This document shows, piece after piece, positions 19,217-53,846 of a DNA stretch of 64,000 nucleotides (the first letter of the stretch is position 1; each line of letters opens with the position of its first letter). Under the pieces are notes generated by a model. It worked only from the letters and a program-made list of their open reading frames with translations. It had not been told where the DNA came from and did not search any database. The stretch lies in NCBI GenBank assembly GCA_965248195.1, contig CBDFIQ010000002.1:288001-352000 (forward strand), written 5' to 3'. This DNA comes from Longimicrobiales bacterium. Its GTDB lineage: Bacteria > Gemmatimonadota > Gemmatimonadetes > Longimicrobiales > Gaopeijiaceae. The translations under genes were made by a program, and so were the position numbers.

Positions 19217-20128
19217 CTAATTGGCACGGGCCTCTTCGCCGGCTTGCACCTCGTACGCCTTGATCAGGGCCTGCGTGCCTTCGTCGGCACAGCCGAGCCG
19301 TTCGACGATGTTGAAGAACTGGTGGGCCAGGCTGGCACCGGGCAGCGCCAGCTTGACGTCGTTCGCGGCCTCCAGGACGATCTTGAGATCCTTCTGCTGC
19401 AGGCGCACCATGAAACCGGGGGCGAAGTCCCCCTTCAGAATGCGGGGCCCCAGATTCGTCAACTGCCACGAGCCCGCGGCGCCGCCGCTGATGGCATCCA
19501 CCACCTTGCCCACGTCCAGATCGGAGGCCGCGGCCAGCATCAGGGCCTCGGCCATGGCCAGGTTCGCTCCCGCCACCGCGATCTGATTGCAGGCCTTCGT
19601 CGTCTGGCCGGCACCGTTTCCGCCGATCAGGTTGATGTTCTTGCCCATCGCCTCGAACACGGGCAGACAGTCGTCGAACACGCTCTGCTCACCGCCCACC
19701 ATGATCGAGAGCGTGCCCTGCTGCGCGCCTACGTCGCCGCCACTCACCGGCGCGTCGAGCATGTGCACACCCTTCTCCCGAAGGGCAGCGGCGATGTCCC
19801 TTGTGACCCGGGGAGAGATCGTGCTCATGTCGGTGACCGTTGCTCCTGCACGAGCGGTCTGCAGCACACCGTCCTCGCCGAGGATCACCTTCTCCGCGTC
19901 GGGTGTGTCCGTGACCATGGTGATGATCACGTCGCTCCCGTTCGCCGCCGCCGCCGGCGTCGCCACGCGCTTGCCACCCGCGTCGACCACTTCCTGCACG
20001 CGCGGCCGGTCTGTGCGATTGTAGACTTTCAGCGAGAAGCCCGCTTTGATCAGGTTCAACGCCATCGGCGCTCCCATGATTCCGAGGCCGACGAAGCCGA
20101 TCTGTGTGCTCCCGGGCTTGGCTGGCAT
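19217..20128 (-). CDS. Beta-hydroxyacid dehydrogenase (GarR/GlxR/MmsB family)
   Basis: GFVGLGIMGAPMA, DMSTISP, LDAPVSGG, GQTTKACNQ, GF...QKDL; GAGGAG RBS before ATG 20128. Confidence 0.9.
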   Translation of the reverse strand: MPAKPGSTQIGFVGLGIMGAPMALNLIKAGFSLKVYNRTDRPRVQEVVDAGGKRVATPAAAANGSDVIITMVTDTPDAEKVILGEDGVLQTARAGATVTDMSTISPRVTRDIAAALREKGVHMLDAPVSGGDVGAQQGTLSIMVGGEQSVFDDCLPVFEAMGKNINLIGGNGAGQTTKACNQIAVAGANLAMAEALMLAAASDLDVGKVVDAISGGAAGSWQLTNLGPRILKGDFAPGFMVRLQQKDLKIVLEAANDVKLALPGASLAHQFFNIVERLGCADEGTQALIKAYEVQAGEEARAN

Positions 20129-20496
20129 GTTTGATCTCCTCAGTACGAGTAGAAGTGGTGTCGATGGTCCTGGATGTCCGCGTCCTCGTAGATCTGTGCG
20201 AACCGGAATCTGAGCAGGATATGCTTGGCGCGCACCCTCTCCTCGCCGAGCCCTCACTCCTCTCGAGTTCCTCGAGCGACTCGCTCTGCTCATCTCCCCG
20301 CCCACGAATGCTTATCCCTGCCGCGAAAGCGTGTTTGCCTCGCCTTCGAACAGCTTGGCCCTGCCTCGGTTATCGCCTTGTTAATCTTCAGCCACGTCAG
20401 CACCTTTCCTGTCCTTGTCGTTCGGAGCCGTCTAATAGACGGCCGCAGAAAGGTCACCAGTGACGTCTCCCACCACTCGAATTTCCCGGTACGGCT

Positions 20497-21930
20497 ATGG
20501 GCGTTGATGAAGCTATCAACCAGGTGATGCGACCCCTCGCAGATCTGATTTCCCAGTTCATCTTCTACGCCGTACCTGTGGCTGGAGCGGAACTGCCTCT
20601 GATCGTAGCATGGCTCATTGCTGGGGGGCTGTTTTTCACCCTTTATCTGGGCTTTATCAATGTGCGTGGGTTCAGACACGCCCTGGACCTTGTTAAGGGG
20701 CGCTACACGGATCCCTCACAGCCGGGCGAAGTCACCCCGTTTCAAGCTCTGGCTACCGCGGTGTCGGGTACCGTCGGAATCGGAAATATGGCCAGTGTGG
20801 CTGTGGCTATATCCTTGGGCGGGCCCGGAGCTACGCTATGGATGATCATCGCAGGTGTGCTCGGCATGAGCACCAAATTCGCCGAATGTACCCTGGCCGT
20901 AAAATTTCGGCGCGCTCACAGTGACGGCTCTGTCAGCGGTGGGCCCATGTATTATCTGCAAGATGGACTGGCGCTGCGAAATCTGCCTACGCTAGGCCGT
21001 GCGCTGGGGATATTTTACGCAGCCAGCATGGTGTTGGGCTGCCTGGGTATCGGTAACATGTTCCAGTCCAATCAGGCCGCCGCCATTCTGATTGACGTGA
21101 CTGGAGGCAGCACGAGCTTCTTCCAGGACAAGGCCTGGATGCTGGGTCTTGTCATGGCCGTTGTCGTGGCTCTGGTGATCGTCGGCGGGATCAAGAGCAT
21201 CGCCAGAACCACCTCAAAACTCGTCCCCTTCATGGCGGTGTTGTACATCGTGTTGGCCCTGGTGATTCTGGCAATCAACTTTGCAAGATTGCCCACTGCC
21301 ATTGTTCAAATCTGGCAGGGTGCCTTCACTCCGGAGGGCATCGCTAGCGGCTTGGTCGGGGTCATGATCATTGGCTTTCGTCGGGCGGTATTTTCCAACG
21401 AAGCTGGCCTCGGTTCCGCTGCAATCGCCCACTCTGCGGTGCGTACCGACGAGCCTGTTACGGAAGGGTTCGTCAGTTTGCTGGAGCCGTTTATCGACAC
21501 GGTAGTCATCTGCACCCTGACTGCCTTGGTTATCATAACCACCGTTTACGACCCGGCATTGGCTTCTTCAGGTATCAGCGGGATCGAATTGACCACGAGG
21601 GCATTTGCAAGCACCCTGTCCTGGTCGCCCATCCCCCTGTCCATCGCGGCAGTGCTATTCGCCTTCTCGACCATAATTTCCTGGAGCTACTACGGCTTGA
21701 AAGCGTTCACCTACCTCGCCGGACAGCATCGGCTCGTCGATGTGGGGTTCAAGTTCTTCTACTGCAGCTTTATCGTCCTTGGCAGCAGTATCCAACTCGA
21801 CGCCCTGATAGATCTGTCAGATGCCCTGGTATTCGTGGTGGCGATTCCCAACCTGCTGGGGTTGTATTTTCTCGCTCCAGTGATAAAGAGAGAAATGCTT
21901 TCCTATCGAGAGCGCCTCAAACGTTATTGA
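20497..21930 (+). CDS. Alanine/glycine:cation symporter (AGCS family)
   Basis: FQALATAVSGTVGIGN, GGPGA.LWM, GGPMYYL, RRAVFSNEAGLGSA, EPFIDT. Confidence 0.93.
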   Translation: MGVDEAINQVMRPLADLISQFIFYAVPVAGAELPLIVAWLIAGGLFFTLYLGFINVRGFRHALDLVKGRYTDPSQPGEVTPFQALATAVSGTVGIGNMASVAVAISLGGPGATLWMIIAGVLGMSTKFAECTLAVKFRRAHSDGSVSGGPMYYLQDGLALRNLPTLGRALGIFYAASMVLGCLGIGNMFQSNQAAAILIDVTGGSTSFFQDKAWMLGLVMAVVVALVIVGGIKSIARTTSKLVPFMAVLYIVLALVILAINFARLPTAIVQIWQGAFTPEGIASGLVGVMIIGFRRAVFSNEAGLGSAAIAHSAVRTDEPVTEGFVSLLEPFIDTVVICTLTALVIITTVYDPALASSGISGIELTTRAFASTLSWSPIPLSIAAVLFAFSTIISWSYYGLKAFTYLAGQHRLVDVGFKFFYCSFIVLGSSIQLDALIDLSDALVFVVAIPNLLGLYFLAPVIKREMLSYRERLKRY

Positions 21931-22012
21931 TTTCTAGCAGACCCAGAGGCGAGAGAGTTATGGTGCCTCACGGCTTTTCGCGGGGTGGACCGTCGTACCA
22001 TCCCCACATGTC

Positions 22013-23140
22013 ATGCTGATCGGAATACCGAAGGAAATAAAGCGCGAGGAGTACCGTGTGGCCCTGACGCCGGCGGGTACCGAAGCGTTGACGCACGCGG
22101 GTCACCAGGTCTTGCTGGAGGCTGGCGCAGGCCTGGGGAGCGGCTTCACGGACGACTTCTATGCAGCTGCCGGGGCGGAGCTGGTGCCCACGTCGGACGC
22201 GGTATGGGCCAGGGCAGAGATGATCATGAAGGTCAAGGAGCCCGTCGAGCCGGAGTGGGGGCACATCCGGCCGGATCAGATTCTCTTCACCTACTTCCAT
22301 TTTGCGTCTTCCGAGGAGCTGACGCGGGCGCTCATCGCCTCCAAGGCCGTCGCGATCGCCTACGAGACGGTGGAACTGCCGAGCGGTGAGCTGCCTCTTC
22401 TGACCCCCATGAGCGAGGTCGCGGGTCGGATGGCCATACAGGAAGGCGCCAAGTACCTCGAGTGCCACTCGGGTGGCGCGGGCGTCCTGCTGGGTGGAGT
22501 GCCCGGAGTGCTGCCCGGCAAGGTCGTCATCCTCGGCGGCGGCATCGTCGGAACCCACGCCGCGCTGATGGCAGCGGGCCTGGGTGCCCGTGTGGCGATC
22601 CTGGACGTATCCCTCGCTCGCCTCCGTCACCTCGAAGGCATCATGCCGGCCAACGTCAATCTGCTCTACTCCACCCGCTATGCCATCCGGAAGCAGATCC
22701 AGGACGCCGACCTGGTGGTGGGTGCGGTGCTACTCCACGGGGCCAAGGCGCCCAGCCTCATCCTCGAGGACGATCTGAAGACCATGAAGCCGGGATCCGT
22801 GATCGTTGACGTGGCCGTGGACCAGGGCGGCTGCGTGGAGACGATTCGTCCCACCACACACGACGACCCGATCTACACCGTCCACGAGGTCATCCACTAC
22901 GGTGTCGCCAACATGCCGGGCGGTGTGCCGAGAACGAGCACTCTCGCGCTGACCAACGCCACGCTACCCTATGCCATCACGCTCGCGACCAAGGGCTGGC
23001 AGGTGGCCTGCCTGGATGACCCCGCGCTCGCGCTGGGCGTGAACATCGTGGACGGAAACGTCACCTACACCGGGGTCGCCGAGGCCTTCGGGTTGGAGTG
23101 TGTGAACGTGGCCAACTTCCTCGATCTCACCAACGGCTGA
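22013..23140 (+). CDS. ald: Alanine dehydrogenase
   Basis: IGIPKEIK..EYRVALTP, KVKEP, PLLTPMSEVAGR, VDVAVDQGGC.ET, VANMPG.VPRTST.ALTNAT. Confidence 0.96.
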   Translation: MLIGIPKEIKREEYRVALTPAGTEALTHAGHQVLLEAGAGLGSGFTDDFYAAAGAELVPTSDAVWARAEMIMKVKEPVEPEWGHIRPDQILFTYFHFASSEELTRALIASKAVAIAYETVELPSGELPLLTPMSEVAGRMAIQEGAKYLECHSGGAGVLLGGVPGVLPGKVVILGGGIVGTHAALMAAGLGARVAILDVSLARLRHLEGIMPANVNLLYSTRYAIRKQIQDADLVVGAVLLHGAKAPSLILEDDLKTMKPGSVIVDVAVDQGGCVETIRPTTHDDPIYTVHEVIHYGVANMPGGVPRTSTLALTNATLPYAITLATKGWQVACLDDPALALGVNIVDGNVTYTGVAEAFGLECVNVANFLDLTNG

Positions 23141-24617
23141 TGACCACCCGCTTGTCTGTGAAAAACTCGACGGCGTCCCTTCCCTGAGCCTTCAGGTCGC
23201 CGTAGAAGGAGCCCCGGGAGCCTCCGAAGGGAAAACATGCCATCGGAGCTGCTACTCCGATATTCACACCGATCATGCTGATGCCCGCGTGGTAGCGAAA
23301 CTCCCGGGCCGTCCGACCGCTCCGGGTGAAGATCGAGGTTGCGTTCCCATACCCGATCTCGTGCATGAGCGCGATCGCGTCCTCGACCGACTCCGCACGC
23401 GTGAGGCTCGCCACAGGACCAAAGATCTCCTCCTGTCCCACGTGCATTCCCGGCTCTACGCCCTCCAAAAGGGTGGGCCCGACCCAGTGACCCTCCGGGT
23501 AGCCGTCGACCTGGAACCCCCGCCCGTCTAGCGCCACATCAGCGCCTTCCCGTTCTCCCTGGTCGATCAAGGCGACGACCCGATCTCGGTGCCGGCGTGA
23601 GATCACCGGCCCCATGAAGGTGTCCTCGTCCAACCCGTAGCCCACCGGGAGGGAAGTGGCTCGGTCGAGTAACCGCACTTTCACCCGTTCATAAGCTTCT
23701 CCCACTCCCACCAGGACGCTGTTTGCGAGGCAGCGCTGTCCCGCCGAACCAAAGATCGACGAGATGGCTGCGTCGGTGGTCAAGTCCAGATCGGCGTCAG
23801 GCAGCACGACCATGTGGTTCTTTGCTCCACCCAGGGCCTGGACCCGCTTGCCGGTCTGTCCGGCTTTCGCGTAGACGACCCGAGCGACCGCGCTGGAGCC
23901 AACGAATGAGACTCCTGATACGTCTGGGTGCTCGAGGATGGCATCTGCCGCGGAGGCGTCACCATGGACCACGTTAAGCACCCCGCTGGGGAGACCTGCC
24001 TGCACCGCCAGCTCAACGATCTTCTGGTGCGTAAGTGGATCCTGCTCGCTCGGCTTCAAGACGAACGTGTTTCCGGTTGCCACCGCGTATGGCCAGAACC
24101 ACATCGGGATCATCACCGGGAAGTTGTAGGGAGTGATCCCTGCGAAGACGCCCAACGGTTGCCGAACGGTCTCACAGTCGATTCCCCGAGCGACATCCTC
24201 GAGGGTCTCACCCATCATCAGCGTGGGGATGCCGCAGGCGTGTTCAACGTTCGCGATCCCCCGCTGGATCTCGCCCGAGGTCTCGGCGACGTTCTTGCCG
24301 TGTTCCCGGGTCAGCTCTCGCGCCAAGTCATCCCGATGTTGGTCGAGGAGCGCCTTGAGGCGGAACAAGACCTGCACGCGGTCGACGGCAGGTGTCGCCC
24401 GCCACGCCGGGAACGCCTCCTTAGCCGCCGCTACCGCGACATGTACGTCGTCACGAGTCGAGAGCGGTACGCGTCCGAGGAGCTCCCCAGTGCCCGGGTC
24501 GTGGACTGGGAGGGCGTCGGATGTGGATGACGGCATCCACTCTCCCCCGATGAAGTTGGGAATCGGGAGCTCAACGTCGCCGGTCGAGCGGCTCTGGGAA
24601 GTCTCACTATGGGCCAT
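23127..24617 (-). CDS. mmsA: CoA-acylating (methyl)malonate-semialdehyde dehydrogenase family
   Basis: ITPYNFPVMIPMW, LKPSE, SFVGSS, KRVQALGGAKNH, GSAGQRCLA, EEIFGPV, GVNIGVAAP...FPFGG. Confidence 0.9.
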   Translation of the reverse strand: MAHSETSQSRSTGDVELPIPNFIGGEWMPSSTSDALPVHDPGTGELLGRVPLSTRDDVHVAVAAAKEAFPAWRATPAVDRVQVLFRLKALLDQHRDDLARELTREHGKNVAETSGEIQRGIANVEHACGIPTLMMGETLEDVARGIDCETVRQPLGVFAGITPYNFPVMIPMWFWPYAVATGNTFVLKPSEQDPLTHQKIVELAVQAGLPSGVLNVVHGDASAADAILEHPDVSGVSFVGSSAVARVVYAKAGQTGKRVQALGGAKNHMVVLPDADLDLTTDAAISSIFGSAGQRCLANSVLVGVGEAYERVKVRLLDRATSLPVGYGLDEDTFMGPVISRRHRDRVVALIDQGEREGADVALDGRGFQVDGYPEGHWVGPTLLEGVEPGMHVGQEEIFGPVASLTRAESVEDAIALMHEIGYGNATSIFTRSGRTAREFRYHAGISMIGVNIGVAAPMACFPFGGSRGSFYGDLKAQGRDAVEFFTDKRVVISRW

Positions 24618-24667
24618 GATGGCTCCTCACTCCGGTGTAGTGGCTGGTCAAGCTAGGGTAACACGGC

Positions 24668-26188
24668 TCACTGGTCGGCAGCTTCTGGTGGACGCCAGTC
24701 CAGGACACTTTGGATGATTCGCTCAGCGTGCTCGGGCACGCCCTCCAGCTCCACCTCCATACCACTGGCCTGCACCTCGTCCACCAGCTCCCTCAACACC
24801 AGGGCTCCCGTGAAGTCGATTCGGCCAAGTCCTTCCAAGTGCAGGATCAGCGTGGTGGCCTCAGCAGCTTGGGCCACCCGCTCCTCGGCCATCTGCTCCA
24901 GGTATGCTGCCGACCCGAACCACAGCACCCCCCCCGGCTTCAGATGCACCCCCCGGGCGTCGCTCCAGGACTCGATGCCGGGCTTCAGCTCCCGCCAGAT
25001 ATGAACCGCCACCGCCGCCAGGATGCCCAGGACCACCGCCTGCTCGATATGCGGCGCTAACCACAGAGTGAGCACGAACGTGATCCACGCGACGGCCGCC
25101 TGCGGTCCCGACATGCTCCAGAGGGAGGCGAGAGGCCGTAGACGAACGAGGGGAGCCACCGCCACGATGACGATGGCGCTGAGAACCGCCCTGGGAAGCG
25201 GGGCGAGGACCTGAGCGAAGGGCAGAAAGACGAGGACGGTGGCTCCCGTCACTGCGCCGCTCCAGCGCGTGCGAGCTCCGGAGAGGTAGTTCAGGCTGCT
25301 TCGGGTAAAGGACCCCCCGACGGGGAACCCGCCGAAGAGGCCGGCCGCCACGTTGGCGGCCCCCTGGCCGATGAACTCCCGGTCCGGACTCCAGGCCATG
25401 CGCTCCTTGCTGGCGTAGACCCGAGCGATGGACGCGGTCTCGGCAAAGCCCACCAAGGCGATCACGAATCCAGGGAGGACGAGGACCGGCAGGCTCGCCC
25501 AGGGGAGGTCGAGACCGAGGGACGGAAAGCCCACCTGGATATCTCCGACCCGGGGACCTGTATACCCGGTGACGATGGAGAACGTCAGACCCGCGACTGT
25601 GGCGATGAGGACTCCGGGCACCAGAGGATGAATGCGGGGTCCCACATAAATCACGGCCACGGTCACCGCCGTGAGGACGAGTGCGGCAGCCTCCCAGGAA
25701 CCCGGATGAGCCAGCGTCCAGAATGCCCGTGAAAGCACTCCGTCACTCGGGGCCAGGACGCCGGCTGCCCCGGGAAGCTGCGAGCTGATGATCAGGATCG
25801 CCGCCCCCGAAGTGAAGCCGTCGAGCATGGGTCTCGACATCATGTAAGAGATCCACCCGCCCTTGAGCGCGCCCACTAAGACGCGGGTGATACCCACTAC
25901 CAGGGCCAGAAGCGCGGCCAGGCGGACGTAGTCGGCCGAGCCCGGCACGGCCAGGGGAACGAGGGCCCCCAACGTGAGCAGGGCCGTCACCGCCACGGGA
26001 CCGGTCTGGAGGTAAGGCGACGAAGCGAAGAACGCGGCCGCAAGGGGCGCCACGGCGGCCGCGAAGAGCCCATGCCGGCTGGGAAGACCCGCCAGCTCCG
26101 CGTACGCCATGGCCTGGGGAATGAGCACCAGTCCCACGCCGAAGCCCGACACGAAGTCCCTCGCGGAAGGCCTCTGGACAGCCTTCAA
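24668..26188 (-). CDS. SulP family anion permease with STAS domain
   Basis: LIPQAMAYAELAGLP, TGPVA, GFTSGAA, GGFPVGGSFTRS; STAS ...IDFTG. TTG start. Confidence 0.9.
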   Translation of the reverse strand: MKAVQRPSARDFVSGFGVGLVLIPQAMAYAELAGLPSRHGLFAAAVAPLAAAFFASSPYLQTGPVAVTALLTLGALVPLAVPGSADYVRLAALLALVVGITRVLVGALKGGWISYMMSRPMLDGFTSGAAILIISSQLPGAAGVLAPSDGVLSRAFWTLAHPGSWEAAALVLTAVTVAVIYVGPRIHPLVPGVLIATVAGLTFSIVTGYTGPRVGDIQVGFPSLGLDLPWASLPVLVLPGFVIALVGFAETASIARVYASKERMAWSPDREFIGQGAANVAAGLFGGFPVGGSFTRSSLNYLSGARTRWSGAVTGATVLVFLPFAQVLAPLPRAVLSAIVIVAVAPLVRLRPLASLWSMSGPQAAVAWITFVLTLWLAPHIEQAVVLGILAAVAVHIWRELKPGIESWSDARGVHLKPGGVLWFGSAAYLEQMAEERVAQAAEATTLILHLEGLGRIDFTGALVLRELVDEVQASGMEVELEGVPEHAERIIQSVLDWRPPEAADQ

Positions 26189-26299
26189 GCCGGCACCCCC
26201 ACGTCGGCTTGGGCCTCCCAGCCCAACCTCTCGCGAGACAAGAAGGGGCGGATCGACGAGCTGGTCATGGTGGCCCCATCCGCATCAGACGCCATTCCA

Positions 26300-27460
26300 T
26301 CAAGCAGAATCGGTGGGAGATGCGACACCTTCCCCGCTTCGTGAGGCAGCATCGTGCAGCATGGCCACCGTACGATAGACGACGTGAGCAAACTTGGAAT
26401 ACGGGATGTACACGAGCAGGAAGAACACGAACAGGAGGTGCACGAAGTACGTCGGGTACGCAATGGCTCCGACACCCATCAGCCTCGTGACCTGCGCGAG
26501 AAACCCCGTAAGCGTGGTCAGCAGCAGGATGTCAAGGAAGAGCCAGTCGGAATAGGTGCTCTTGCCAGCCTGAATCTTGTCGGCGATCCGGCGGTAGCCG
26601 AACCCCAGGAGCGCGACGATGACCGCGGCCCCACTGAGGTTGCCGAGGATCTTCACGGGATGCCAAAGCGGCCAGGGCGTGAGGTAGCCGAAGGCGTAGA
26701 TGCCGATCCCGACGGACGAGGTCGTCACCACGAGCCCGAGGAAGCCGTAGAACGCCAGCAGGTGGGTGCGAGCAAAAGGCTCCCGAGGCGATGGGCGGGT
26801 TCCGGGCGATTCGTCAGCACACTGCCTGAACTTACGGTGTCGGAGGATCGTCCGGAGCGTCGGCAGCAGCCGCACCGGACCTCGGTCGCGGATCATTCCA
26901 CGGTTCATCGCCCTCCAATATCGAAGTCCGCCTGTTGCCGCCGCGGTGAGTGAGAGCGCCATGGCCGCGGTGAAGACCACTTCGATGAAGACGATGGGCA
27001 TGAACTTGGAGAAGACGACGGTGCCCCCCGGCAACGCGGTAAGGTTACCGATCCCCGCGAGAATGGCACCGAAAATCAGGGCCGGGATGGCGAACAGGAG
27101 CGGCAAGAACTTCGACTCGCCCAGCATGCGACCCATCACGCGAGGCACCGCGTAGTGTTCAATGCTGTACTCCCTGAGGGCAGCCATCACCTGGGCGGGC
27201 TGCGCCTCTCTCGGACAGTACGAGGTGCAAATGGCACAATCGTGGCACGCCCATATCGAAGAATTCGACAGCGCCAGATCCTTCAGGCCCCACTGGACCC
27301 AGACCATCTCCTTGCGGGGAAACGGATTCTCGGGGGTGGAGATTGGGCAGACGATCGAGCAGGTCCCGCACTGGTAGCAGGCGGTCAGGTCGTGCGCGCC
27401 CCGACCGAGGATCTGGGACTTGAACTCTAAATCCGGCTGGATCAGCGACGTCTCTGGCAC
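26300..27460 (-). CDS. qmoC: Quinone-interacting membrane-bound oxidoreductase subunit C
   Basis: CYQCGTCSIVCP...PFPRKEM.W.QWG...CHDC..CT.YCPR, followed by a heme-b membrane domain (HPVKILGN, YFVHL, PYSKFAH..YR). Confidence 0.93.
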   Translation of the reverse strand: MPETSLIQPDLEFKSQILGRGAHDLTACYQCGTCSIVCPISTPENPFPRKEMVWVQWGLKDLALSNSSIWACHDCAICTSYCPREAQPAQVMAALREYSIEHYAVPRVMGRMLGESKFLPLLFAIPALIFGAILAGIGNLTALPGGTVVFSKFMPIVFIEVVFTAAMALSLTAAATGGLRYWRAMNRGMIRDRGPVRLLPTLRTILRHRKFRQCADESPGTRPSPREPFARTHLLAFYGFLGLVVTTSSVGIGIYAFGYLTPWPLWHPVKILGNLSGAAVIVALLGFGYRRIADKIQAGKSTYSDWLFLDILLLTTLTGFLAQVTRLMGVGAIAYPTYFVHLLFVFFLLVYIPYSKFAHVVYRTVAMLHDAASRSGEGVASPTDSA

Positions 27461-27472
27461 GCTCGACCCCCC

Positions 27473-29617: not shown

Positions 29618-30921
29618 CCACCAGGCCTCTGCGCGGCGCTCTGAATGGCCCCTATCGCCTTCACGGCGGCGGCCGTTGCGTCCTGCACGGCCGTGGCCAC
29701 GTCCACCGGTCCCCGGGCGCAACCGGCGGCAAAGAGACCAGGGGACGGCTGGTCGGGTAGTAGAAAGTGGTCCTCGTCGCACGCCAGGTCTGCGGTGGGC
29801 AGGCCGTTTTCGGCACTGGCCACCATCCCCGTGGCCAGCACCACCAGATCGACCGCGACCTGGCGCTTCTTCGGCGCCAGAATCTCCTCCGCCTCCACGA
29901 GCAGCTCCCCGGTTCGGGGATCGTCGGCGATCCGGCCGACCTTTCCCTTGATCACTTCCACGCCGGGGTCGGCTTGCACCTTTCGGGCGAAGAACTCGTA
30001 CGTCCCCGGCGTCCTCAGATCGATGTAGAAGATGAAGACTTTGGCGTCCGGATTTTGGTCGCGCACGTAGGTAGCCTGCTTCAACGAGCCGAGGCAGCAG
30101 ATCCCCGAGCAGTAGCCGAGGTGGGTCTCGTCTCGTTGTCCCGCACACTGGACGAACGCGACCTTGTTCACCGGCTCGCCGTTCGACAATCGGACGATCT
30201 TTCCGCCCGTCGGCCCGTTCGGCGAAGCGAGGCGTTCCATCATGACGTTGGTGATCACATCGGCGTAACGGCCGAAGCCCAGGTTGTCGATCCGCCCCGC
30301 GTCGTACGGTTTCCAGCCGGTCGCCAGTACCACGGCACCGACCTTCAAGGTGAACGTCTGCGGTTTCATGCTCAGATCGATCGCATCGTATGTGCATACG
30401 TCGACACAGCGCGCGCACTCAGCGAGCTGGCATACCGAATCGTCGATCGCGTACTTCATCGGAAACGCCAGCGGATGCGGAAGATAGATCGCCTTGGTCG
30501 TTCCCATCCCGAAGTTGAAAGCATCGGGTCGATCCGTCGGACAGACCGCCACACAGTCATTACAGGCGGTGCAGCGATCGTTGACGTAGCGCGGCTGCTG
30601 AGTGATCGTCACGTCGAGATCACCGGGCTCTCCGGATATGCTCTCGACTTCCGCTAGGGTGTAGAAGCGGATCAGACGGTTGTTTTTCAGGCGCTGAAAG
30701 TTGATCTCAAGGCCACAATAGGGTGGACACAGCTTGGGAAAATACTTGTGGAGCTGAGCGACACGCCCGCCAAGGTACGGCTCCTTTTCGATGACGACGA
30801 TGTCGTAGCCGGCCTCTGCTGCCTCCAAAGCGGCACTCATGCCAGCGATCCCTGCGCCCACGACGAGGATCGTCCGCGAGACTGACAGCGGAGGGGACGA
30901 TGACGCCGGCGTGGTTGGCAT
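29614..30921 (-). CDS. qmoA: QmoA (HdrA-like flavoprotein)
   Basis: ILVVGAGIAG, YLGGRVAQL.KYFPKLCPPYCGLEIN, VQCAGQRDE.HL.YCS.ICCLGSLKQ, FYIDLRTPG. 4-nt overlap with qmoB. Confidence 0.95.
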   Translation of the reverse strand: MPTTPASSSPPLSVSRTILVVGAGIAGMSAALEAAEAGYDIVVIEKEPYLGGRVAQLHKYFPKLCPPYCGLEINFQRLKNNRLIRFYTLAEVESISGEPGDLDVTITQQPRYVNDRCTACNDCVAVCPTDRPDAFNFGMGTTKAIYLPHPLAFPMKYAIDDSVCQLAECARCVDVCTYDAIDLSMKPQTFTLKVGAVVLATGWKPYDAGRIDNLGFGRYADVITNVMMERLASPNGPTGGKIVRLSNGEPVNKVAFVQCAGQRDETHLGYCSGICCLGSLKQATYVRDQNPDAKVFIFYIDLRTPGTYEFFARKVQADPGVEVIKGKVGRIADDPRTGELLVEAEEILAPKKRQVAVDLVVLATGMVASAENGLPTADLACDEDHFLLPDQPSPGLFAAGCARGPVDVATAVQDATAAAVKAIGAIQSAAQRPGG

Positions 30922-30948
30922 CTGCTTTGATAACCTTTGAAATGAGCT

Positions 30949-32826
30949 CTAGGAAACCACCTGGATATAGGGCTTCTTGACCATGGTCCACTCCTTGGTG
31001 GCAGGGTCCCAGGTCGAGTTGGCGAAGCACTTCCAGTTCTCCTCGTCCAGCGTGGGGTAATCGGCGCGATAGTAGTAGCCCGGCCAGCGCGTCTCTTCCC
31101 GAAACATCATGTGCCGCATGTGCGCCTCGAGACACCAGATGCGGTCCCACACCTCCCAACAGCGGAGGAGGTCGTGCAGGTCTCGTGCGCCCAGCTTCTC
31201 AAGGTCCTCCTTGAGGAGATCCAGCATCTCGAGCCCGCGCTCCAGCATCTTCCCATTCGTGAGGTAGTACGCGCCGTGACCCGCAGCGTACTCATCGGCG
31301 ATCTTCTGAAGCCGCAGCAGGGCCTGCTTCGGCAAGATGTAGTGTGGGTTGACGTCGGGCTGGGTCGACGCGCCGACCCCGCGCTCGAACACTTCGATGG
31401 GCTGCCACAACTCTTTCTTGATCTCCTCGACGCGGTCCTGCTCCAGGTTGCAGTCATCGGGGTTGTCGTGGACGTACGCGACAGCAGCCTTGCCGGCAAA
31501 GCGTCCTTCGGTATAGGACCCTGACGAAAACTTATGCGCCGACCCGCTGACGCCGTCGCCGGCCGCGAAGAGCCCGTTGATGGTTGTCATGCGATTGTAG
31601 CCCCAGAAGTACTCCGGGGGCGCCAGGTCCTCCGGGCCGCTCACCCAGGCTCCGGTGGCCGACGCATGTGAGCCCATCAGATACGGTTCGGTCAGTACGA
31701 TCTCGGAAGGGGTCTTGGCGGGGTCGATGTTTTCCGACGCCCACAGCAGGGCCTGCGACATGGTCATGTTGAGAAAGTCTTCCCAGGCCTCGCTCTCGAT
31801 CTCCCGGATCTTCTTTTTGTCGTGCTGCGCGTCGGCGAACATCTTCTGGAGGGCTTCGTCGGTCCGAAGGTAGTGAGGTCCCCCGCCAGCGAGAAAATCT
31901 TGTAATAGCTGGTGATTTCGGAGTGGTGTCGGAATGGGCTTCTGCCCGCCATACGGTTCCCAATCCTTCAAGAGGTGGGCCCACTTTTCCTCCACCTTCT
32001 CTCCGTAGGCGTTCTTGAGCACCGCTTTGAACATCAGAAACCACATCCCCACCGGGCCGTAACCATCCTTTAACCGCGCCACGACGAGGCGGTGCTCGAA
32101 CTGGCTCATTTGTGCGCCGACCTGGATCATCAGCTTGTACACGGACCCGGTGTTCCACGGCGCGTACCAGATGCGCCCGAGCCCTTCCCCGACGGAATGC
32201 GGACGAAAGACCCCGGCCGCACCTCCAGCAGCGCAGATGACCGCCTTCGCCTTGAAGACGTAGATCTTCGGCTCTCGAACGCTGAACCCGATGGCCCCCG
32301 CGATGCGCCGCGGGTCCTTGGCGTCGGTGAGCAGGTGTGACATGAAGATGCGTTCGTACACGTTCTGGTCGCCGACGGCCTTCTTGGCGGCCTCCGCCAC
32401 GATCGGCTTGTACGACTCACCATGGATCATGACCTGCCAGCGCCCTTCCCGCTTGTAGCGTCCATCCTCCGTCTTGAAGAACGGGAGTCCCCACTCTTCG
32501 AACATGTGGACGCTCGAGTCCACGTGCCGCACGATGTCATACACCAGGTCCTCTCGACTCAGCCCCATGAGGTCCTGCCGGACATACCGCACGAAGTCTT
32601 CGGGCTGGTTCTCCCCCCATTTCATCCCCATATAGCAATTGATAGCGGACAGGCCCATCGCCACCGCTCCGCTTCGCTCGACGGCGCCCTTCTCCACCAA
32701 CACGACCCGAAGCCCCTTCGAACGGGCCCAGTGGGCCGCTTCGTAGGCCGCTCCGCACCCCGCCATGCCCCCGCCTACGATCAGGACATCACACTCAACT
32801 ACCTCTGTGGTTGGCTCAACCATCAC
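30949..32826 (-). CDS. aprA: Adenylylsulfate (APS) reductase alpha subunit
   Basis: RSGAVAMGLSAIN, WQVMIHGESYKPIVAEAA, DGYGPVG.WF, TEPYLMGSH, HKFSSGS, REETRWPGYYYR.D.P. Confidence 0.98.
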   Translation of the reverse strand: MMVEPTTEVVECDVLIVGGGMAGCGAAYEAAHWARSKGLRVVLVEKGAVERSGAVAMGLSAINCYMGMKWGENQPEDFVRYVRQDLMGLSREDLVYDIVRHVDSSVHMFEEWGLPFFKTEDGRYKREGRWQVMIHGESYKPIVAEAAKKAVGDQNVYERIFMSHLLTDAKDPRRIAGAIGFSVREPKIYVFKAKAVICAAGGAAGVFRPHSVGEGLGRIWYAPWNTGSVYKLMIQVGAQMSQFEHRLVVARLKDGYGPVGMWFLMFKAVLKNAYGEKVEEKWAHLLKDWEPYGGQKPIPTPLRNHQLLQDFLAGGGPHYLRTDEALQKMFADAQHDKKKIREIESEAWEDFLNMTMSQALLWASENIDPAKTPSEIVLTEPYLMGSHASATGAWVSGPEDLAPPEYFWGYNRMTTINGLFAAGDGVSGSAHKFSSGSYTEGRFAGKAAVAYVHDNPDDCNLEQDRVEEIKKELWQPIEVFERGVGASTQPDVNPHYILPKQALLRLQKIADEYAAGHGAYYLTNGKMLERGLEMLDLLKEDLEKLGARDLHDLLRCWEVWDRIWCLEAHMRHMMFREETRWPGYYYRADYPTLDEENWKCFANSTWDPATKEWTMVKKPYIQVVS

Positions 32827-32920
32827 ACCTTGCTCCCGTAGTAAGACCGCCGTTGGTGGCCGTCGGCACGGGGTTCACAAGTCCCCATGCGCCTGGCTGT
32901 TAGTCGGATTCCGGATGACG

Positions 32921-33370
32921 CTACGCGAGGGCCGGTGTCGGCAGCTCAGGCACTCCAAGAAACTGCGCCTGCTGGGAAAGGGCCTGCCCTTTCAGATCGT
33001 CCTGCGTCGGCACCGGCATGCCGTCGTGGGGCACGATGGATCCCCAGGGTGTGGTACGAATTGGATACTTGAATCGCTTGGTCTCTCCGTTGCGGAACTT
33101 CACGGTCCACATGATCGAGTCTGTCCCGCGCATCGACGTGATGCTGGCGCCCATCGGCGCGACGTCGGCATACGCACGGATATCGATCGCCGACTGGGGG
33201 CAGGTCTTCACGCACGCATAACATTCCCAGCACTGGTCGGGTTCGATGTTGAAGGCCTTCCCGATGGACTGGTCGAGATGCATGATGTCGGAGGGGCAAA
33301 TGTAATGACAGGCGGGCTTGTCTAACGCCTTGCACCCGTCACACTTGTCCGGATTCACATAGGTCGGCAT
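32921..33370 (-). CDS. aprB: Adenylylsulfate reductase beta subunit
   Basis: MPTYV..DKCDGCK....AC.YICP, EPDQCWECY.CVK.CP, MWTVKFRNG..KRFK.PIRTT. Confidence 0.98.
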   Translation of the reverse strand: MPTYVNPDKCDGCKALDKPACHYICPSDIMHLDQSIGKAFNIEPDQCWECYACVKTCPQSAIDIRAYADVAPMGASITSMRGTDSIMWTVKFRNGETKRFKYPIRTTPWGSIVPHDGMPVPTQDDLKGQALSQQAQFLGVPELPTPALA

Positions 33371-33528
33371 CGGTCATTATCTCTGTCGGCCCGACTATGC
33401 CCGGCCGGTGGTGAGCTGAATCAGTGAAACCTCATCTCGCCTGCAGGCTGCTCACGCGGATCCCGCCGATCGGTCAAACCAGGACGTTTGAGAGTCTGCG
33501 TTCCTGTGCGTGGCGTCGAGGCGGCTAT

Positions 33529-33557
33529 ATTAGAGTCGACGGGTGACCTCTTGTCAA
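33529..33557 (-). promoter_or_regulatory. Candidate sigma70 promoter for aprBA-qmoABC
   Basis: Minus strand TTGACA (33557-33552), 17-nt spacer, TCTAAT (33534-33529). Confidence 0.6.
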
Positions 33558-33723
33558 ATAAAGGGGCTCTTCCGGGTTCGTCGTGGTGATTTTGATGGGA
33601 AAGGCCCACCCGGCCCGGCCGTCTGCGACAGGATGGCTCCCAAGGAGTGGGGGAACCTTGACACCATTTCCCCAAAAAGTTATCAGTCCGGAAATTTCAC
33701 GCAGGCCCTATCGGCTTTGCGGA

Positions 33724-33852
33724 ATGGACGAGATCGTGGTCACGGGCACGCCTGGAGGCACCCGAAGAAGGGCGATCGCAAATACGGTTGCCCGGGGTGG
33801 ATGCGGTGGCAGCCCTCGCGGCGGCGCCGATCCAAGATGTTGACGACCTCCT
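33724..33852 (+). pseudogene. Frameshifted fragment of a SusC/RagA-type TonB-dependent receptor
   Basis: DEIVVTGTPGGTRRRAIANTVAR, then after a frameshift VDAVAALAAAPIQDVDDLL. This matches the TonB-box-like/plug start of such receptors. Confidence 0.6.
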
Positions 33853-34070
33853 CGTCGTGCTCAACGGTGCCCTTGCGCTGGACGACGAGAGACCGGCGTA
33901 TGCGCTCGCCGGCACGACGATTCGCAATCAGCGGCCCTCCCCGCGCCGGTGCCGGGTGACAGAGCAGGACCGCGGTCCGCGATTGACGTGGGAGACAGTG
34001 ACACCCCGCTGCTCGATTGCCTGGGTGGTCTTACCGAGGCTCGAGAAATCCGAGAACAGAGAGGCTGGAG

Positions 34071-35801
34071 ATGGCGAAGAAAAAAATGACGCCCTCCGAG
34101 GCGCTGGTCGAGACACTCGTTGCCGAGGGAGTGGAGGACCTGTTCGGCTTGGTTGGCTCAGCGTTCATGGACGCCCTGGACCTGTTCCCTGACGCCGGTA
34201 TTCGATTCATTCCCGTGGCCCACGAGCAGGCGGCTGCGCACGCTGCTGATGGTCTGGCCAGGGTGACGGGAAGGCCCCAGGCCTGCATTGCCCAAAACGG
34301 GCCGGGCGCGGCGAATTTTGTGTCCGCCATCGCTGCAGCTTACTGGGCGCACTCTCCGGTAGTGGCCATCACTCCCGAGACGGGGTCGAGGGGGATCGGT
34401 ACCGGCGGCTTTCAGGAGCTGGACCAGATGCCCATGTTCGAGAAGCAGACCGTATATCAGGTGCGGGTCAACCGCCCCGACCGCATGGCCGAGCTGGCCA
34501 GGCGCTGCTTCTATCGGGCCAAGGCCGAGCTCGGCCCGACCCACCTGAACATTCCCCGGGACTATTTCTATGGGGACATCGAAGACGAGATCGTCGCCAC
34601 TCCGACGCTCGGGGCGGGTCGTCCGCCCAAAAAGGATATCGAAGCTGCGATCAGCTTTCTGAAGGCCGCCGATTATCCGGTCATCGTCTCGGGAGGTGGT
34701 GTCAGTCAGGGTGACGCCGTGGATGAGATCAAGGCCCTGGCCGAGTACCTGAGCGCGCCGGTGATCACCACCTACTTGCACAACGACGCGTTCCCGTACA
34801 GCCACGAGCTCGGCTGCGGACCCATCGGCTACTGTGGCTCCAAGGCAGCCATGCGGACCATCGCCAAAGCCGACGTGGTGTTGGCCTTGGGAACCAGACT
34901 GGGGATTTTCGGCCTGCTTCCCCAGTACGATATGACCTACTGGCCCGAGGAGGCCACGCTCATCCAGGTGGACAGAGACCCGAAGCAATGGGGCTTGAGC
35001 AAGATTCCGGACCTCTTTTCCGTGGCGGACGTGAAGGAGTACGCTACGGATTTGCTGCGGGAGCTGAAGAACTTCCAGCCGAACCCGGAGAGAAACGAAG
35101 AGCGCATCGCCGACGTGGCCAGGGAAAAAGAGACGTGGGACAAGGAGCTCGAAGACTGGTCGTCGTCTACGAACAAGGTGATGCATCCCCGGCGCTTCCT
35201 CTGGGAGCTGACTCGCGTTCTGCCTGAGGATGCACTGGTGACTACGGACGTCGGGAATACCTGCTCCATCACCAACGGGTACCTCAGATTCAAAGGGCCC
35301 CGACAGCACCTCCCCGCCTTGACCTGGGGCAACTGCGGTTTCGCCTACGGCTGCGCCATGGGGGCCAAAATCGGGAAGCCGGACGCCCCGGTCTTTGCCA
35401 TTCAGGGAGACGGGGCCTGGGGCATCAGCGGGTTGAGCGAGGTGATGACCGCCGTCCGGGAGGACATTCCGGTGGTCGCCATCGTGATCAACAACCACGA
35501 ATGGGGTGCGGAGAAGAAGAACCAGATCGACTTTTACGGCGACCGCTTCGTCGGCACCAACCTGCCGGACAATCCGGATTTCGCCAAAGTGGCCGAGGCG
35601 ATGGGCGCGGTGGGCTTTACCGTCGAGGATTACCGGGATGTCCAGGACGTAGTGCGGGAAGCCATGGCTTGCGGCAAGCCCTGCGTGATCAACGCGGTGG
35701 TCGAGGGCGGAGAGAAGGTGCTGGCGGAGCCTTTCCGACGGGACGCATTGGAGATGCCGACCCGCTATCTCGACAAGTACGCACACCTGAGTCTGGAATA
35801 G
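34071..35801 (+). CDS. xsc: Sulfoacetaldehyde acetyltransferase (ThDP-dependent)
   Basis: KMTPSEA.VE, FG.VGSAFMDALDLFP.AGIRF, HEQ, AAAYWAHSP, NIPRD, GSKAAM, GDGAWG, WGAEKKNQ.DFY..RF, EPFRRDAL. Confidence 0.95.
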   Translation: MAKKKMTPSEALVETLVAEGVEDLFGLVGSAFMDALDLFPDAGIRFIPVAHEQAAAHAADGLARVTGRPQACIAQNGPGAANFVSAIAAAYWAHSPVVAITPETGSRGIGTGGFQELDQMPMFEKQTVYQVRVNRPDRMAELARRCFYRAKAELGPTHLNIPRDYFYGDIEDEIVATPTLGAGRPPKKDIEAAISFLKAADYPVIVSGGGVSQGDAVDEIKALAEYLSAPVITTYLHNDAFPYSHELGCGPIGYCGSKAAMRTIAKADVVLALGTRLGIFGLLPQYDMTYWPEEATLIQVDRDPKQWGLSKIPDLFSVADVKEYATDLLRELKNFQPNPERNEERIADVAREKETWDKELEDWSSSTNKVMHPRRFLWELTRVLPEDALVTTDVGNTCSITNGYLRFKGPRQHLPALTWGNCGFAYGCAMGAKIGKPDAPVFAIQGDGAWGISGLSEVMTAVREDIPVVAIVINNHEWGAEKKNQIDFYGDRFVGTNLPDNPDFAKVAEAMGAVGFTVEDYRDVQDVVREAMACGKPCVINAVVEGGEKVLAEPFRRDALEMPTRYLDKYAHLSLE

Positions 35802-35856
35802 AATCTTCGAGGACCAACAAGGGCCCGTCTCCGGTCCGGCTTGGAGGAGAACCCGT

Positions 35857-37257
35857 ATGTTCGATACGCAAGACTTGCTGTCCAACTATGATGCCAAAGA
35901 CATCATCGAGAAGGACAAGAAGCATCTGTGGCATCACATGGTTCAGCACAAGATCTTCGAGTCGCAGGATCCGAAGATCTTCGTTGAGGGCAAGGGGGCC
36001 CGGGTCAAGGACATTGATGGAAACGAGTATCTAGACGGCGCCTCCGGCGGTGTTTGGTGCGTCAATGTCGGCTATGGGCGCGAGAGCATCGCAAGGGTCA
36101 TATATGACCAGTTGGTCAAACTTCCCTACTACGCTGGAGTAGCCGGGACGGTTCCGGCGGCCCAGTTCGCGGCGAAGCTGACCGACCTGCTGCCAGGTTT
36201 GGACCACGTCTTCTTTGTAAACAGCGGCTCCGAGGCCAACGAAAAGGCCTTCAAGATCGTCCGGCAGATCGCTCACTTGAACAAGAACACGAAGTCCAAG
36301 GTGTTGTACCGGGACCGTGACTATCACGGAACGACGATCGCCTGCCTGGCCGCGACCGGTCAGCCGGAGCGCAAGGAGGCGTACGGCCCCTTCCCGGACG
36401 GATTCGTGGGCATTCCCCATGCTCTGTGCTATCGCTGTCCCTTCGGCCTGGCCTATCCCGATTGTAACATCGAGTGCGCCCGTGCCCTGGAGGATGTGAT
36501 CCAGGAGGAGGGTCCTGAGACGGTGGGCGCCCTCATCCTCGAGCCGATCACGGCGGGTGGCGGTGTTATTCCTCCGGTCGAGGAATACTATCCCATCATC
36601 CAGGAGATCTGTGGAAAATATGGCGTTATCCTGATCATCGACGAGGTCGTGTGCGGTTTTGGACGGACCGGGACCATGTTCGGTTTCGAGCATTATGACT
36701 TCACGCCGGACATCGTGACGATGGCCAAGGGTATGGCCAGCTCCTACGCGCCGATCTCGGCTACGGCGGTGCGAAGCGAAGTCTTCGAGCAGTTCCTCCA
36801 CGATCCGAGCGACAAGTACGACTATTTCCGGGACATCAGTACGTACGGCGGCTGCACAGCGGGGTTTGCCGCCGCCCTGGAGAACCTGCGTATCCTCGAG
36901 GAGGAAGACCTGGTTGAAAATGCTCGCGTGGTCGGAGATCACCTTTGCGACCGCCTACGGGAGCTGGCCGACAATGAGTATGTCGGGGATGTCCGGGGCA
37001 AGGGACTGTTCGCGGGCGTGGAGCTCGTGGAAGACAAGTCCTCGAAGACACCTGTGAGCGAGGACGTGATGAACGCGGTCATGCGAAAGATCACCGAGAG
37101 GGGCGTGCTGGTGGGCAAGACTACCAGAAGCCTTCCCGGCCTGAACAACACCATCAACATCGCACCGCCTCTGATCGTAACGAGGGCGGATGTCGACGAG
37201 ATCGTCGATGCGGTGAAGTGGGGCATCGAGCACGGCTGCCAGGAGGTTCTGGGCTGA
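35857..37257 (+). CDS. tpa: Taurine-pyruvate aminotransferase (class III PLP)
   Basis: WHH..QHK, SGGVWCVNVGYGRESIA, NSGSEANEKAFK, YRDRDYHGTT, EPITAGGG, DEVVCG, MAKG, YFRDISTYGGC. Directly downstream of xsc. Confidence 0.9.
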   Translation: MFDTQDLLSNYDAKDIIEKDKKHLWHHMVQHKIFESQDPKIFVEGKGARVKDIDGNEYLDGASGGVWCVNVGYGRESIARVIYDQLVKLPYYAGVAGTVPAAQFAAKLTDLLPGLDHVFFVNSGSEANEKAFKIVRQIAHLNKNTKSKVLYRDRDYHGTTIACLAATGQPERKEAYGPFPDGFVGIPHALCYRCPFGLAYPDCNIECARALEDVIQEEGPETVGALILEPITAGGGVIPPVEEYYPIIQEICGKYGVILIIDEVVCGFGRTGTMFGFEHYDFTPDIVTMAKGMASSYAPISATAVRSEVFEQFLHDPSDKYDYFRDISTYGGCTAGFAAALENLRILEEEDLVENARVVGDHLCDRLRELADNEYVGDVRGKGLFAGVELVEDKSSKTPVSEDVMNAVMRKITERGVLVGKTTRSLPGLNNTINIAPPLIVTRADVDEIVDAVKWGIEHGCQEVLG

Positions 37258-53712: not shown

Positions 53713-53846
53713 ATGGAAACGACTCCTTGAACCCTGGGGCGCGGGGTATAAACATATGTTCAGAACTTCGTGTGGCGCAACGGAAGTGGTCATCGCCAAC
53801 CGGGAGGGCGCTGGTGCGGTCGAGCAGGATTTCGTTAACCTGACCC

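Follow-up and report, generated by a model that had tools for sequence, protein, structure and literature searches.

The window, a stretch of 64,000 nucleotides from a Longimicrobiales genome (G000; 4.86 Mb, two contigs, 91.8% complete), carries genes for taurine desulfonation beside genes for adenosine 5'-phosphosulfate (APS) reductase, AprAB, and the QmoABC complex. An AGCS-family symporter gene (agcS) and ald lie on the plus strand, mmsA-sulP-qmoC-qmoB-qmoA-aprA-aprB on the minus strand, and xsc-tpa is divergent from the latter, see Table 1. This order and these strands agree with a preliminary description of the locus, and aprA, aprB, qmoC, xsc, ald, mmsA and agcS score over their cut-offs. 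Its coordinates needed some correction: position 19217 is the end of a beta-hydroxyacid dehydrogenase gene that it did not mention, qmoB starts at 29617 and xsc at 34071. All genes of the locus are intact and the GC content is even across the region. Below, other G numbers are coded relatives, L numbers are fetched loci and X numbers are sequencing runs.

Insertion of an apr-qmo cassette into a taurine locus

A 9.4-kb aprBA-qmoABC-sulP cassette interrupts an older agcS-mmsA-xsc-tpa locus, where it separates the 5' ends of mmsA and xsc. This follows from sequences in which mmsA or agcS directly adjoins xsc. The gene row is garR-like, agcS, xsc, tpa in G422 and G423, and garR-like, agcS, mmsA, xsc, tpa in G425, i.e., the window minus ald and minus approximately 24660-34040. 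In the sediment run X7, joints from 21934 to 34051/34055 connect agcS to xsc without the cassette. The assemblies of G422, G423 and G425 are 73-90% complete, and the local gene adjacency is direct evidence.

In the preliminary description, mmsA was part of the apr-qmo-sulP unit. However, in G425 mmsA and xsc are divergent, and in G430, a second species whose homology with the window stops at 24663, sulP is not followed by mmsA. The position of mmsA behind sulP in the window thus merely reflects the landing site of the cassette, and we reject mmsA as a designed member of an apr-qmo operon. Like agcS and ald, it belongs to the older locus, as does the garR-like gene, which is divergent from agcS and has an equal position in G422, G423 and G425. 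The ald gene is a variable insertion, as it is bypassed in contigs from three further studies, where 21947/21950 is joined directly to 23123. MmsA and the GarR-like enzyme may serve in the metabolism of beta-alanine or 3-hydroxypropionate, which correspond to taurine and isethionate with a carboxylate in place of the sulfonate.

We reject a misassembly at the junction between apr and xsc. G430 matches the block at 91-93% identity, and a 903-nt contig from another study (run X14, record 7) extends from 25 nt upstream of aprB into xsc, covering 33395-34302 with 38 differences and 5 gaps. The adjacency therefore recurs both in a second species and in an independent sample, and is not unique to this assembly. 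Only G000 and G430, two of the 12 genomes of the genus, carry apr-qmo, and the window AprA is 97% identical to that of a genome in the same genus. The habitats of the holders of matching sequences include sediment metagenomes and coded host labels. The lower depth over sulP-qmo in run X7 is no measure of copy number, and contigs of the RNA run X17 that cover apr, qmo, xsc and tpa may stem from DNA and cannot show transcription; neither was used.

G000 and G430 differ less in the cassette genes (synonymous divergence, dS, 0.08-0.19) than in xsc, tpa and ald (0.24-0.27). From this lower dS the cassette looks younger than its flanks, and we infer that it was moved by recombination. The dN/dS values of 0.10-0.42 indicate that it is under purifying selection. 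The two carriers also differ in sat. In G430, a 1.45-kb segment with sat lies between aprB and xsc, while the window has approximately 94 unrelated bases (33561-33655) and, by tblastn, no remnant of sat between these genes. The Sat of the G430 cassette is only 42% identical to the Sat preceding aprB in most of the clade, which suggests that it was replaced by a foreign gene. At the protein level it (L033:7957-9216) is 39-46% identical to most clade Sat proteins. A sat loss in progress is seen in Ca. Marinacidobacterales (L038:5944-9503), where a frameshifted 3' remnant of sat lies next to IS3 and IS1380 elements upstream of aprB.

The proteins of the cassette have the features of their families. 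Eight N-terminal cysteines of QmoC, forming two Fe-S motifs, are conserved in 43/43 aligned QmoC sequences, and the membrane histidines 208, 233, 341 and 359 in 42-43 of these. The best solved match of AprA is 2FJA/1JNR (844 bits, residues 5-624), while a search of the PDB with Xsc gave no matches at 1e-60. Directly 3' of xsc, the aminotransferase is 56% identical to its best named relatives, plasmid proteins annotated as hypotaurine-pyruvate aminotransferase Tpa. Orthologs of sulP (68-71%) exist in unrelated contexts in three cassette-less members of the genus. A promoter consensus scan of 33300-34150 found none; two outward-facing TTGACA hexamers, noted by eye, are conserved in G430, and neither passed the scan.

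The AGCS symporter is a candidate importer of taurine (or beta-alanine), or a carrier of alanine. An agcS gene occurs in 13 of the 80 best metagenome xsc loci and stands beside xsc-tpa in the genera g1, g2 and g58. Across several genera, a symporter of this family (73-91% identical) travels with xsc-tpa (L126-L134, L160-L196, L269). No TauABC or TRAP (tripartite ATP-independent periplasmic) transporter genes were seen at these loci or in the window locus, and no genome-wide search was made for them. In G430, a second AGCS gene adjoins a CuyA-like enzyme (L125:15407-18681).

Table 1. Features of the window locus and of the sir leader elsewhere in G000. Hidden Markov model (HMM) figures, here and in the text, are score/NCBIfam cut-off.
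Feature	Position	Strand	Evidence
Beta-hydroxyacid dehydrogenase (GarR/HIBADH family, 303 aa)	19217..20128	-	TIGR01505 306/341, under all cut-offs
AGCS-family Na+/amino-acid symporter	20497..21930	+	TIGR00835 388/273
Alanine dehydrogenase Ald	22013..23140	+	TIGR00518 512/392
CoA-acylating (methyl)malonate-semialdehyde dehydrogenase MmsA	23127..24617	-	TIGR01722 598/449
Inserted unit sulP-qmoCBA-aprAB and upstream DNA	24660..34040 (ends approximate)	-	Comparison with G422, G423, G425, G430 and run X7
SulP/SLC26 anion transporter with STAS domain	24668..26188	-	PF00916, PF01740; TIGR00815 251/380, under cut-off
QmoC, membrane subunit	26300..27460	-	NF038018 373/300
QmoB (HdrA-like with ferredoxin and C-terminal MvhD/FlpD domains)	27473..29617	-	HMM domains; start checked
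QmoA (HdrA-like flavoprotein)	29614..30921	-	HMM matches
AprA, APS reductase alpha subunit	30949..32826	-	TIGR02061 967/642
AprB, APS reductase beta subunit	32921..33370	-	TIGR02060 210/136
Divergent intergenic region	33371..34070	.	Between aprB and xsc
Xsc, sulfoacetaldehyde acetyltransferase	34071..35801	+	TIGR03457 741/676; NF005713 817/620
Tpa-type taurine/hypotaurine:pyruvate aminotransferase (class III)	35857..37257	+	PRK07678 511/488
Cys-rich leader peptide and terminator before sir	G000:C2:2891527-2891643 (L156:11479-11644)	-	Seven Cys codons

Distribution of the AprA clade and its links to xsc

Within the family, 30 of 314 genomes have aprA. Six of these (G000, G430, G113, G314, G336, G300) score at least 933 bits and fall in the clade of the window, while the other 24 score at most 897 bits or are fragments, and only G116 of these was placed on the tree. 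At the class level, the search around G402 found aprA in 9/151. The AprA tree contains 65 sequences (21 near-redundant Dehalococcoidia were dropped from 86) and was rooted on four dsr-linked sequences. In this tree the window groups with Longimicrobiales, Ca. Marinacidobacterales and Nitrospinota, far from the dsr-linked Gemmatimonadota, to whose AprA lineage it is 52-56% identical. Among 31 genomes tested, dsrA is present in eight, of which two are alphaproteobacteria of the wider clade and six are Gemmatimonadota, all those tested whose AprA is of the other type. None of the five relatives with the window's AprA type has it, one of them being 100% complete.

The gene xsc is found in 31 of the 314 family genomes, five of the six with the window's AprA type and 26 of the 308 others, a count in which kin are not independent. 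Two layouts link xsc to the cassette. In G000 and G430, xsc-tpa is divergent from apr-qmo, while G314 and G336 have a co-directional row of pta, xsc, dctP, an MFS gene, sat, aprBA and qmoABC, with an Xsc of a different clade. The layouts and the Xsc clades differ, and the link arose twice, once in this genus and once, independently, in a related genus.

Several other observations concern aprA loci. Near qmoC, a small HIT-family protein, weakly like ATP adenylyltransferases, is encoded at seven aprA loci from several phyla (L056:10491-10901, L037, L040, L042, L046, L053, L055) and could possibly be an accessory in the handling of APS. It is absent from the window and the best match in the genome is a HinT-like protein of 27% identity, so we set it aside as a substitute for Sat here. 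A thiamine diphosphate enzyme match (25% identity) beside apr in L037 was rejected as not being Xsc. In three proteobacterial genomes (L047, L072, L082), aprB is followed by tandem aprA paralogs that are 52-70% identical to the window AprA, and the fetched DNA shows no qmo. In an alphaproteobacterium (G418:C14:399709-441000; L141, L142, L050), xsc, TRAP and ackA-like genes lie approximately 30 kb from dsrA and an apr-qmo-sat cluster.

Fate of the taurine-derived sulfite

Tpa converts taurine and pyruvate to sulfoacetaldehyde and alanine, Ald recycles the alanine and frees ammonium, and Xsc converts sulfoacetaldehyde to acetyl phosphate and sulfite. We lean towards the view that AprAB-QmoABC mainly oxidises this sulfite in an aerobic, marine heterotroph of the Longimicrobiales. 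Taurine would be taken up, probably via the AGCS symporter, and transaminated with pyruvate by Tpa, Ald would recycle the alanine with release of ammonium, and the cleavage by Xsc would release sulfite in the cytoplasm. With the laterally gained aprBA-qmoABC-sulP, sulfite and AMP would then be converted to APS, and two electrons would pass via QmoABC to the quinone pool and on to oxygen. Apr and Sat are reversible and Qmo is the link to quinones (PMC3333476, PMC3779200).

The preliminary description presented the pathway as that of a single locus. The locus does not hold a complete pathway, as it has no sat and neither Pta nor AckA was found in the genome. The only Sat of G000 is a fusion of Sat and APS kinase (Sat-CysC; PRK05537 930/669), approximately 585 kb from the locus. 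As the cassette lacks sat, this unlinked fusion must serve, and it would drain APS either to ATP and sulfate or to 3'-phosphoadenosine 5'-phosphosulfate (PAPS). A Sat-family match exists in 14/14 apr genomes tested (one partial and under the cut-off). Stand-alone sat adjoins aprB in G430, G113, G314, G336 and G300. The fusion is retained in G000, G402 and G403, all without a cassette sat or other stand-alone sat; in G402 and G403, whose cassettes lost sat, it is 73% identical to that of G000. Pta, AckA and PduL were not found in G000, where the only PTA_PTB match is a malic-enzyme fusion. An acylphosphatase and an acetyl-CoA synthetase (Acs) are present, and since Pta and AckA were not found, acetyl phosphate would probably be used through these two enzymes.

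The search for other sulfur genes in G000 gave no match to dsrA at E 0.001, in line with an expectation of the preliminary description; dsrC and dsrMK were not searched. SoxB was not found. In the search for a SoeA-type molybdoenzyme, the four PF00384 matches were two formate dehydrogenases, one QrcB/ActB-like protein and NuoG. A COX1-family oxygen reductase is present. A SoxC-type sulfite dehydrogenase (509/420) with a cytochrome c partner offers another possible route for sulfite. It occurs in 22 of 24 genomes tested, including all seven xsc-positive genomes of g2 and g58.

Several lines of evidence support sulfite oxidation: the absence of matches to dsrA and soxB together with the presence of COX1 and an AprA clade that is mostly without dsr; the two separate links to xsc and the enrichment of xsc; the intact genes and their dN/dS; the Sat-family matches in all apr genomes tested, with Sat-CysC kept where stand-alone sat is gone; and the lack of a Cys-rich leader before the cassette, unlike the sir operon discussed below. 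There is also a precedent in Ca. Taurinisymbion ianthellae, with proteomics and sulfate release (PMC10356861).

Other observations weigh against it. The cassette of the window lacks a sat of its own. None of the seven xsc-positive, apr-negative genomes of g2 and g58 has Sat, and all have the SoxC-type enzyme; Apr is thus not needed for taurine use. The link is also rare: xsc lies within 10 kb of aprA in only 3 of the 80 best GTDB aprA loci, all from this family, and apr or qmo in none of the 80 best metagenome xsc loci, many of which are short. The co-localisation for which the preliminary description suggested a search has a second instance in the family, but a widespread linkage is unsupported. 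Of the 23 dsrA-negative genomes with related AprA, 18 have no xsc over the cut-off (five have it), and the linked xsc of G336 is frameshifted. Finally, the loss of cysH and the retention of sir, described next, fit a reductive role equally well.

We fetched the DNA around sir for 15 genomes. A PF01507 cysH lies directly upstream of sir in 6/6 cassette-less members of the genus examined, while it is deleted at this native site in both carriers, G000 and G430. Genome-wide, PF01507 has no match in G000 and matches in 14/14 controls; the genome-wide check covers G000 only, and for the other genomes the DNA around sir, sat and aprA. The breakpoints differ: in G430 the first codons remain but most of the spacer is gone, whereas in G000 the start is gone and the spacer remains. 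The sir tree places the carriers as sisters (0.89), which the trees of two neighbouring genes do not. This could reflect two deletions or a separate trimming of one earlier lesion.

In G000, sir encodes a NIR_SIR protein beside cysG, at the cysH-sir position of the relatives. The protein is under the named sir/cysI cut-offs, so that its function rests on this context. Upstream of sir, a short open reading frame (ORF) contains seven Cys codons in a row, after which come a GC-rich hairpin and a T run, in the form of a ribosome-mediated attenuator. The genome of G000 has no other run of at least six Cys codons, and three shuffles gave none. Cys-rich leaders precede (cysH)-sir across the genus (L247-L253), and the leader and terminator mark this operon as cysteine-regulated assimilation. 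Several genus members have a second Cys-rich leader further upstream, and in G000 approximately 3 kb of inserted genes lie between the two; the pair looks like tandem cysteine attenuators. All ten cassette genomes tested have a Sir-type match, and in the eight besides G000 and G430 no cysH was found beside it in the fetched DNA (one contig being only 2.7 kb).

The loss of cysH can be read in two ways. If Apr-Qmo oxidises sulfite, cysH would have become redundant or harmful, since the retained Sir could use the taurine-derived sulfite directly and CysH would complete a futile cycle from sulfite over APS and PAPS back to sulfite. Alternatively, Apr-Qmo could be a reversible valve that replaces CysH in assimilation and oxidises taurine sulfite when it is in excess. 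Without sulfonates, SulP would then import sulfate, Sat would form APS, Apr would reduce it with electrons that QmoABC takes from quinol, and sulfide would be formed by the cysteine-regulated Sir. This reductive role, which the preliminary description had not considered, is the main rival; we hold it to be possible but rather unlikely. The matching loss of cysH, with different breakpoints in carriers that are non-sisters in two of three gene trees, speaks for it, as do the intact sir behind its leader, the Sir-type matches of the other cassette genomes and the fact that Sat-CysC, Apr-Qmo and Sir together suffice for the whole route. An enzyme resembling Apr has an assimilatory role in a methanogen (PMC10322725). 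Only a few SulP proteins of prokaryotes have been characterised, the majority of which transport other anions (PMC5840216). However, the cassette has no Cys leader and stands twice beside xsc and not beside sir. There are only two carriers in the genus, whose deletions could be separate trimmings of one earlier pseudogene, and the cassette-less controls cover this genus only. The oxidised quinone pool of an aerobe also disfavours APS reduction. The potentials are about -60 mV for APS/sulfite and about -75 mV for menaquinone.

A chance neighbourhood seems improbable to us. Here, the mobile apr-qmo would serve some other source of sulfite, while the sulfite from Xsc would leave the cell and, as in relatives without the cassette, be oxidised by the SoxC-type enzyme. 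In other genomes the cassette indeed adjoins many unrelated genes, in G113 and G300 it has no link to xsc, and a CuyA-like enzyme elsewhere in G000 (382/450, under the cut-off) could be another source. Against this stand the two separate links to different xsc clades and the enrichment of xsc among family carriers. In addition, the Sat of G430, although foreign to the clade, lies between aprB and xsc and completes the route there.

It is about equally improbable that sulfite is captured as APS mainly to supply PAPS for the sulfation of polysaccharides or metabolites, by way of the APS-kinase domain. The Sat-CysC fusion does lie among what look by eye like sugar-nucleotide and polysaccharide genes, the loss of cysH removes a competing PAPS sink, and a like fate was suggested for a sponge alphaproteobacterium (PMC10947273). 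However, the five other family members with the cassette retain the stand-alone sat beside aprB, and seawater sulfate already yields PAPS via the same enzyme. Dissimilatory sulfate respiration, which a full QmoABC typical of sulfate reducers (PMC10504309) and the sat-apr-qmo-dsr clusters of other Gemmatimonadota (PMC11316326) might suggest, we reject as having a negligible probability on the missing dsrA, in G000 as in the five relatives, and the AprA clade is apart from the dsr-linked Gemmatimonadota sequences.

The repurposing of apr-qmo for taurine sulfite in a heterotroph, as the preliminary description proposed, thus agrees with the lack of dsrA, the COX1, the AprA clade and the two links, while the loss of CysH opens a reductive role. 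Of the other sulfur and acetyl-phosphate genes it named, Sat exists only as the fusion and only the SoxC-type enzyme was found for sox.

Relation to known systems and implications

The pathway itself is known. As the preliminary description stated, Apr-based oxidation of taurine-derived sulfite has been put forward for other marine bacteria: it is published for Ca. Taurinisymbion (PMC10356861) and proposed for SAR11 and SAR202 (PMC5864207) and for further genomes (PMC10947273, PMC12019592). Qmo-linked sulfite oxidation was reported for Chlorobaculum (cited in PMC3333476). The suggestion of an undescribed system in the preliminary description is therefore too strong. What is new is the arrangement of ordinary enzymes, an AprBA-QmoABC family member without a linked sat.

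The closest case is Ca. Taurinisymbion ianthellae, for which the same route is described with proteomics and a release of sulfate on taurine in the sponge holobiont (PMC10356861). It shares Tpa, Xsc, Ald, AprAB, Qmo, Sat and a SulP-family permease with our genome, and energy-conserving sulfite oxidation was proposed. However, its tpa, xsc, aprBA and qmoA are on four scaffolds (locus tags 200037, 130047, 90003/90005, 180039), while the window has one block. It has QmoAB-HdrBC, TauABC and Pta, in contrast to a true QmoC, an AGCS carrier, no sat at the locus and no Pta found here. The window locus probably works like this route. The same paper calls the route infrequent, citing SAR11, a gutless-worm symbiont and sponge symbionts.

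In SAR202 and SAR11, an Apr without dsr was also proposed for organosulfur-derived sulfite, with a separate aprA clade near Rokubacteria, but the part of the text covered holds no Qmo or gene linkage (PMC5864207). Among the fetched aprA loci of Dehalococcoidia, there is no xsc at a distance of up to 10 kb. The Sat-AprBA-QmoABC of Chlorobaculum tepidum and Desulfovibrio comprises the same five genes in the same order (PMC3333476, PMC10504309). Qmo is reported to act in sulfite oxidation in C. tepidum (PMC3333476), and a full QmoABC among oxidisers is noted in Chlorobi (PMC10504309). These organisms have Dsr and an inorganic sulfur metabolism, while here no Dsr was found (dsrA searched) and the likely source of sulfite is a sulfonate.

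The PAPS reductase of Methanothermococcus thermolithotrophicus (PMC10322725; PDB 8A8O) belongs to the dissimilatory APS-reductase family, and an assimilatory use would match. However, this enzyme is diverged, PAPS-specific and from an anaerobic archaeon, while canonical AprAB and QmoABC are found here in an aerobe; the window AprA scores 350 bits to 8A8O, as against 844 to the A. fulgidus-type AprA. The sediment Gemmatimonadota with sat-apr-qmo-dsr share the phylum and the gene families, but have a different, dsrA-tied AprA lineage, with apr-qmo only together with dsr and, in the text covered, no mention of taurine or sulfonates (PMC11316326). The covered parts of PMC11685487, PMC13200403 and PMC11905757 contain no Gemmatimonadota case of the route. 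In the open-licence literature we found neither a published link of xsc to apr-qmo nor the route in Longimicrobiales, although supplementary gene tables could hold such cases.

Some features outside the locus were also observed. In a stretch of lower GC, the window has two IS256-family transposase genes of equal HMM score (9113-10294 and 13009-14190) with a 497-aa ORF between them (10454-11947) that has no NCBIfam match, possibly a composite transposon. Divergent Ku and LigD genes for non-homologous end joining lie at 52864-56576. On G000:C2, at approximately 1602-1604 kb and 2783-2785 kb (L143, L144), two formate dehydrogenase alpha genes have one in-frame TGA each; tRNA-Sec is present in the genome and both are probable selenoproteins. 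At G000:C1:1071378-1073597, an array of 17 tRNA genes, all on the same strand, takes up less than 2.3 kb and may belong to a mobile element.

As a marker gene, aprA stands for sulfate reducers and sulfur oxidisers. Nevertheless, aprBA-qmoABC also occurs, without an agreed role, in heterotrophs from sea and soil that form a broad clade and have no dsr. The genus studied here is a natural comparison, as its taurine loci are nearly identical, some with the cassette and others without it, and cysH is deleted or present to match. Such pairs make both a role in turning organosulfur into sulfate and its assimilatory rival testable, and the loci nominate an AGCS-family protein as a candidate carrier of taurine. 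If Apr-Qmo, as a cassette that spreads among aerobic Longimicrobiales of the sea, does act as a reversible valve, this could explain part of the many dsr-less apr-qmo genomes.

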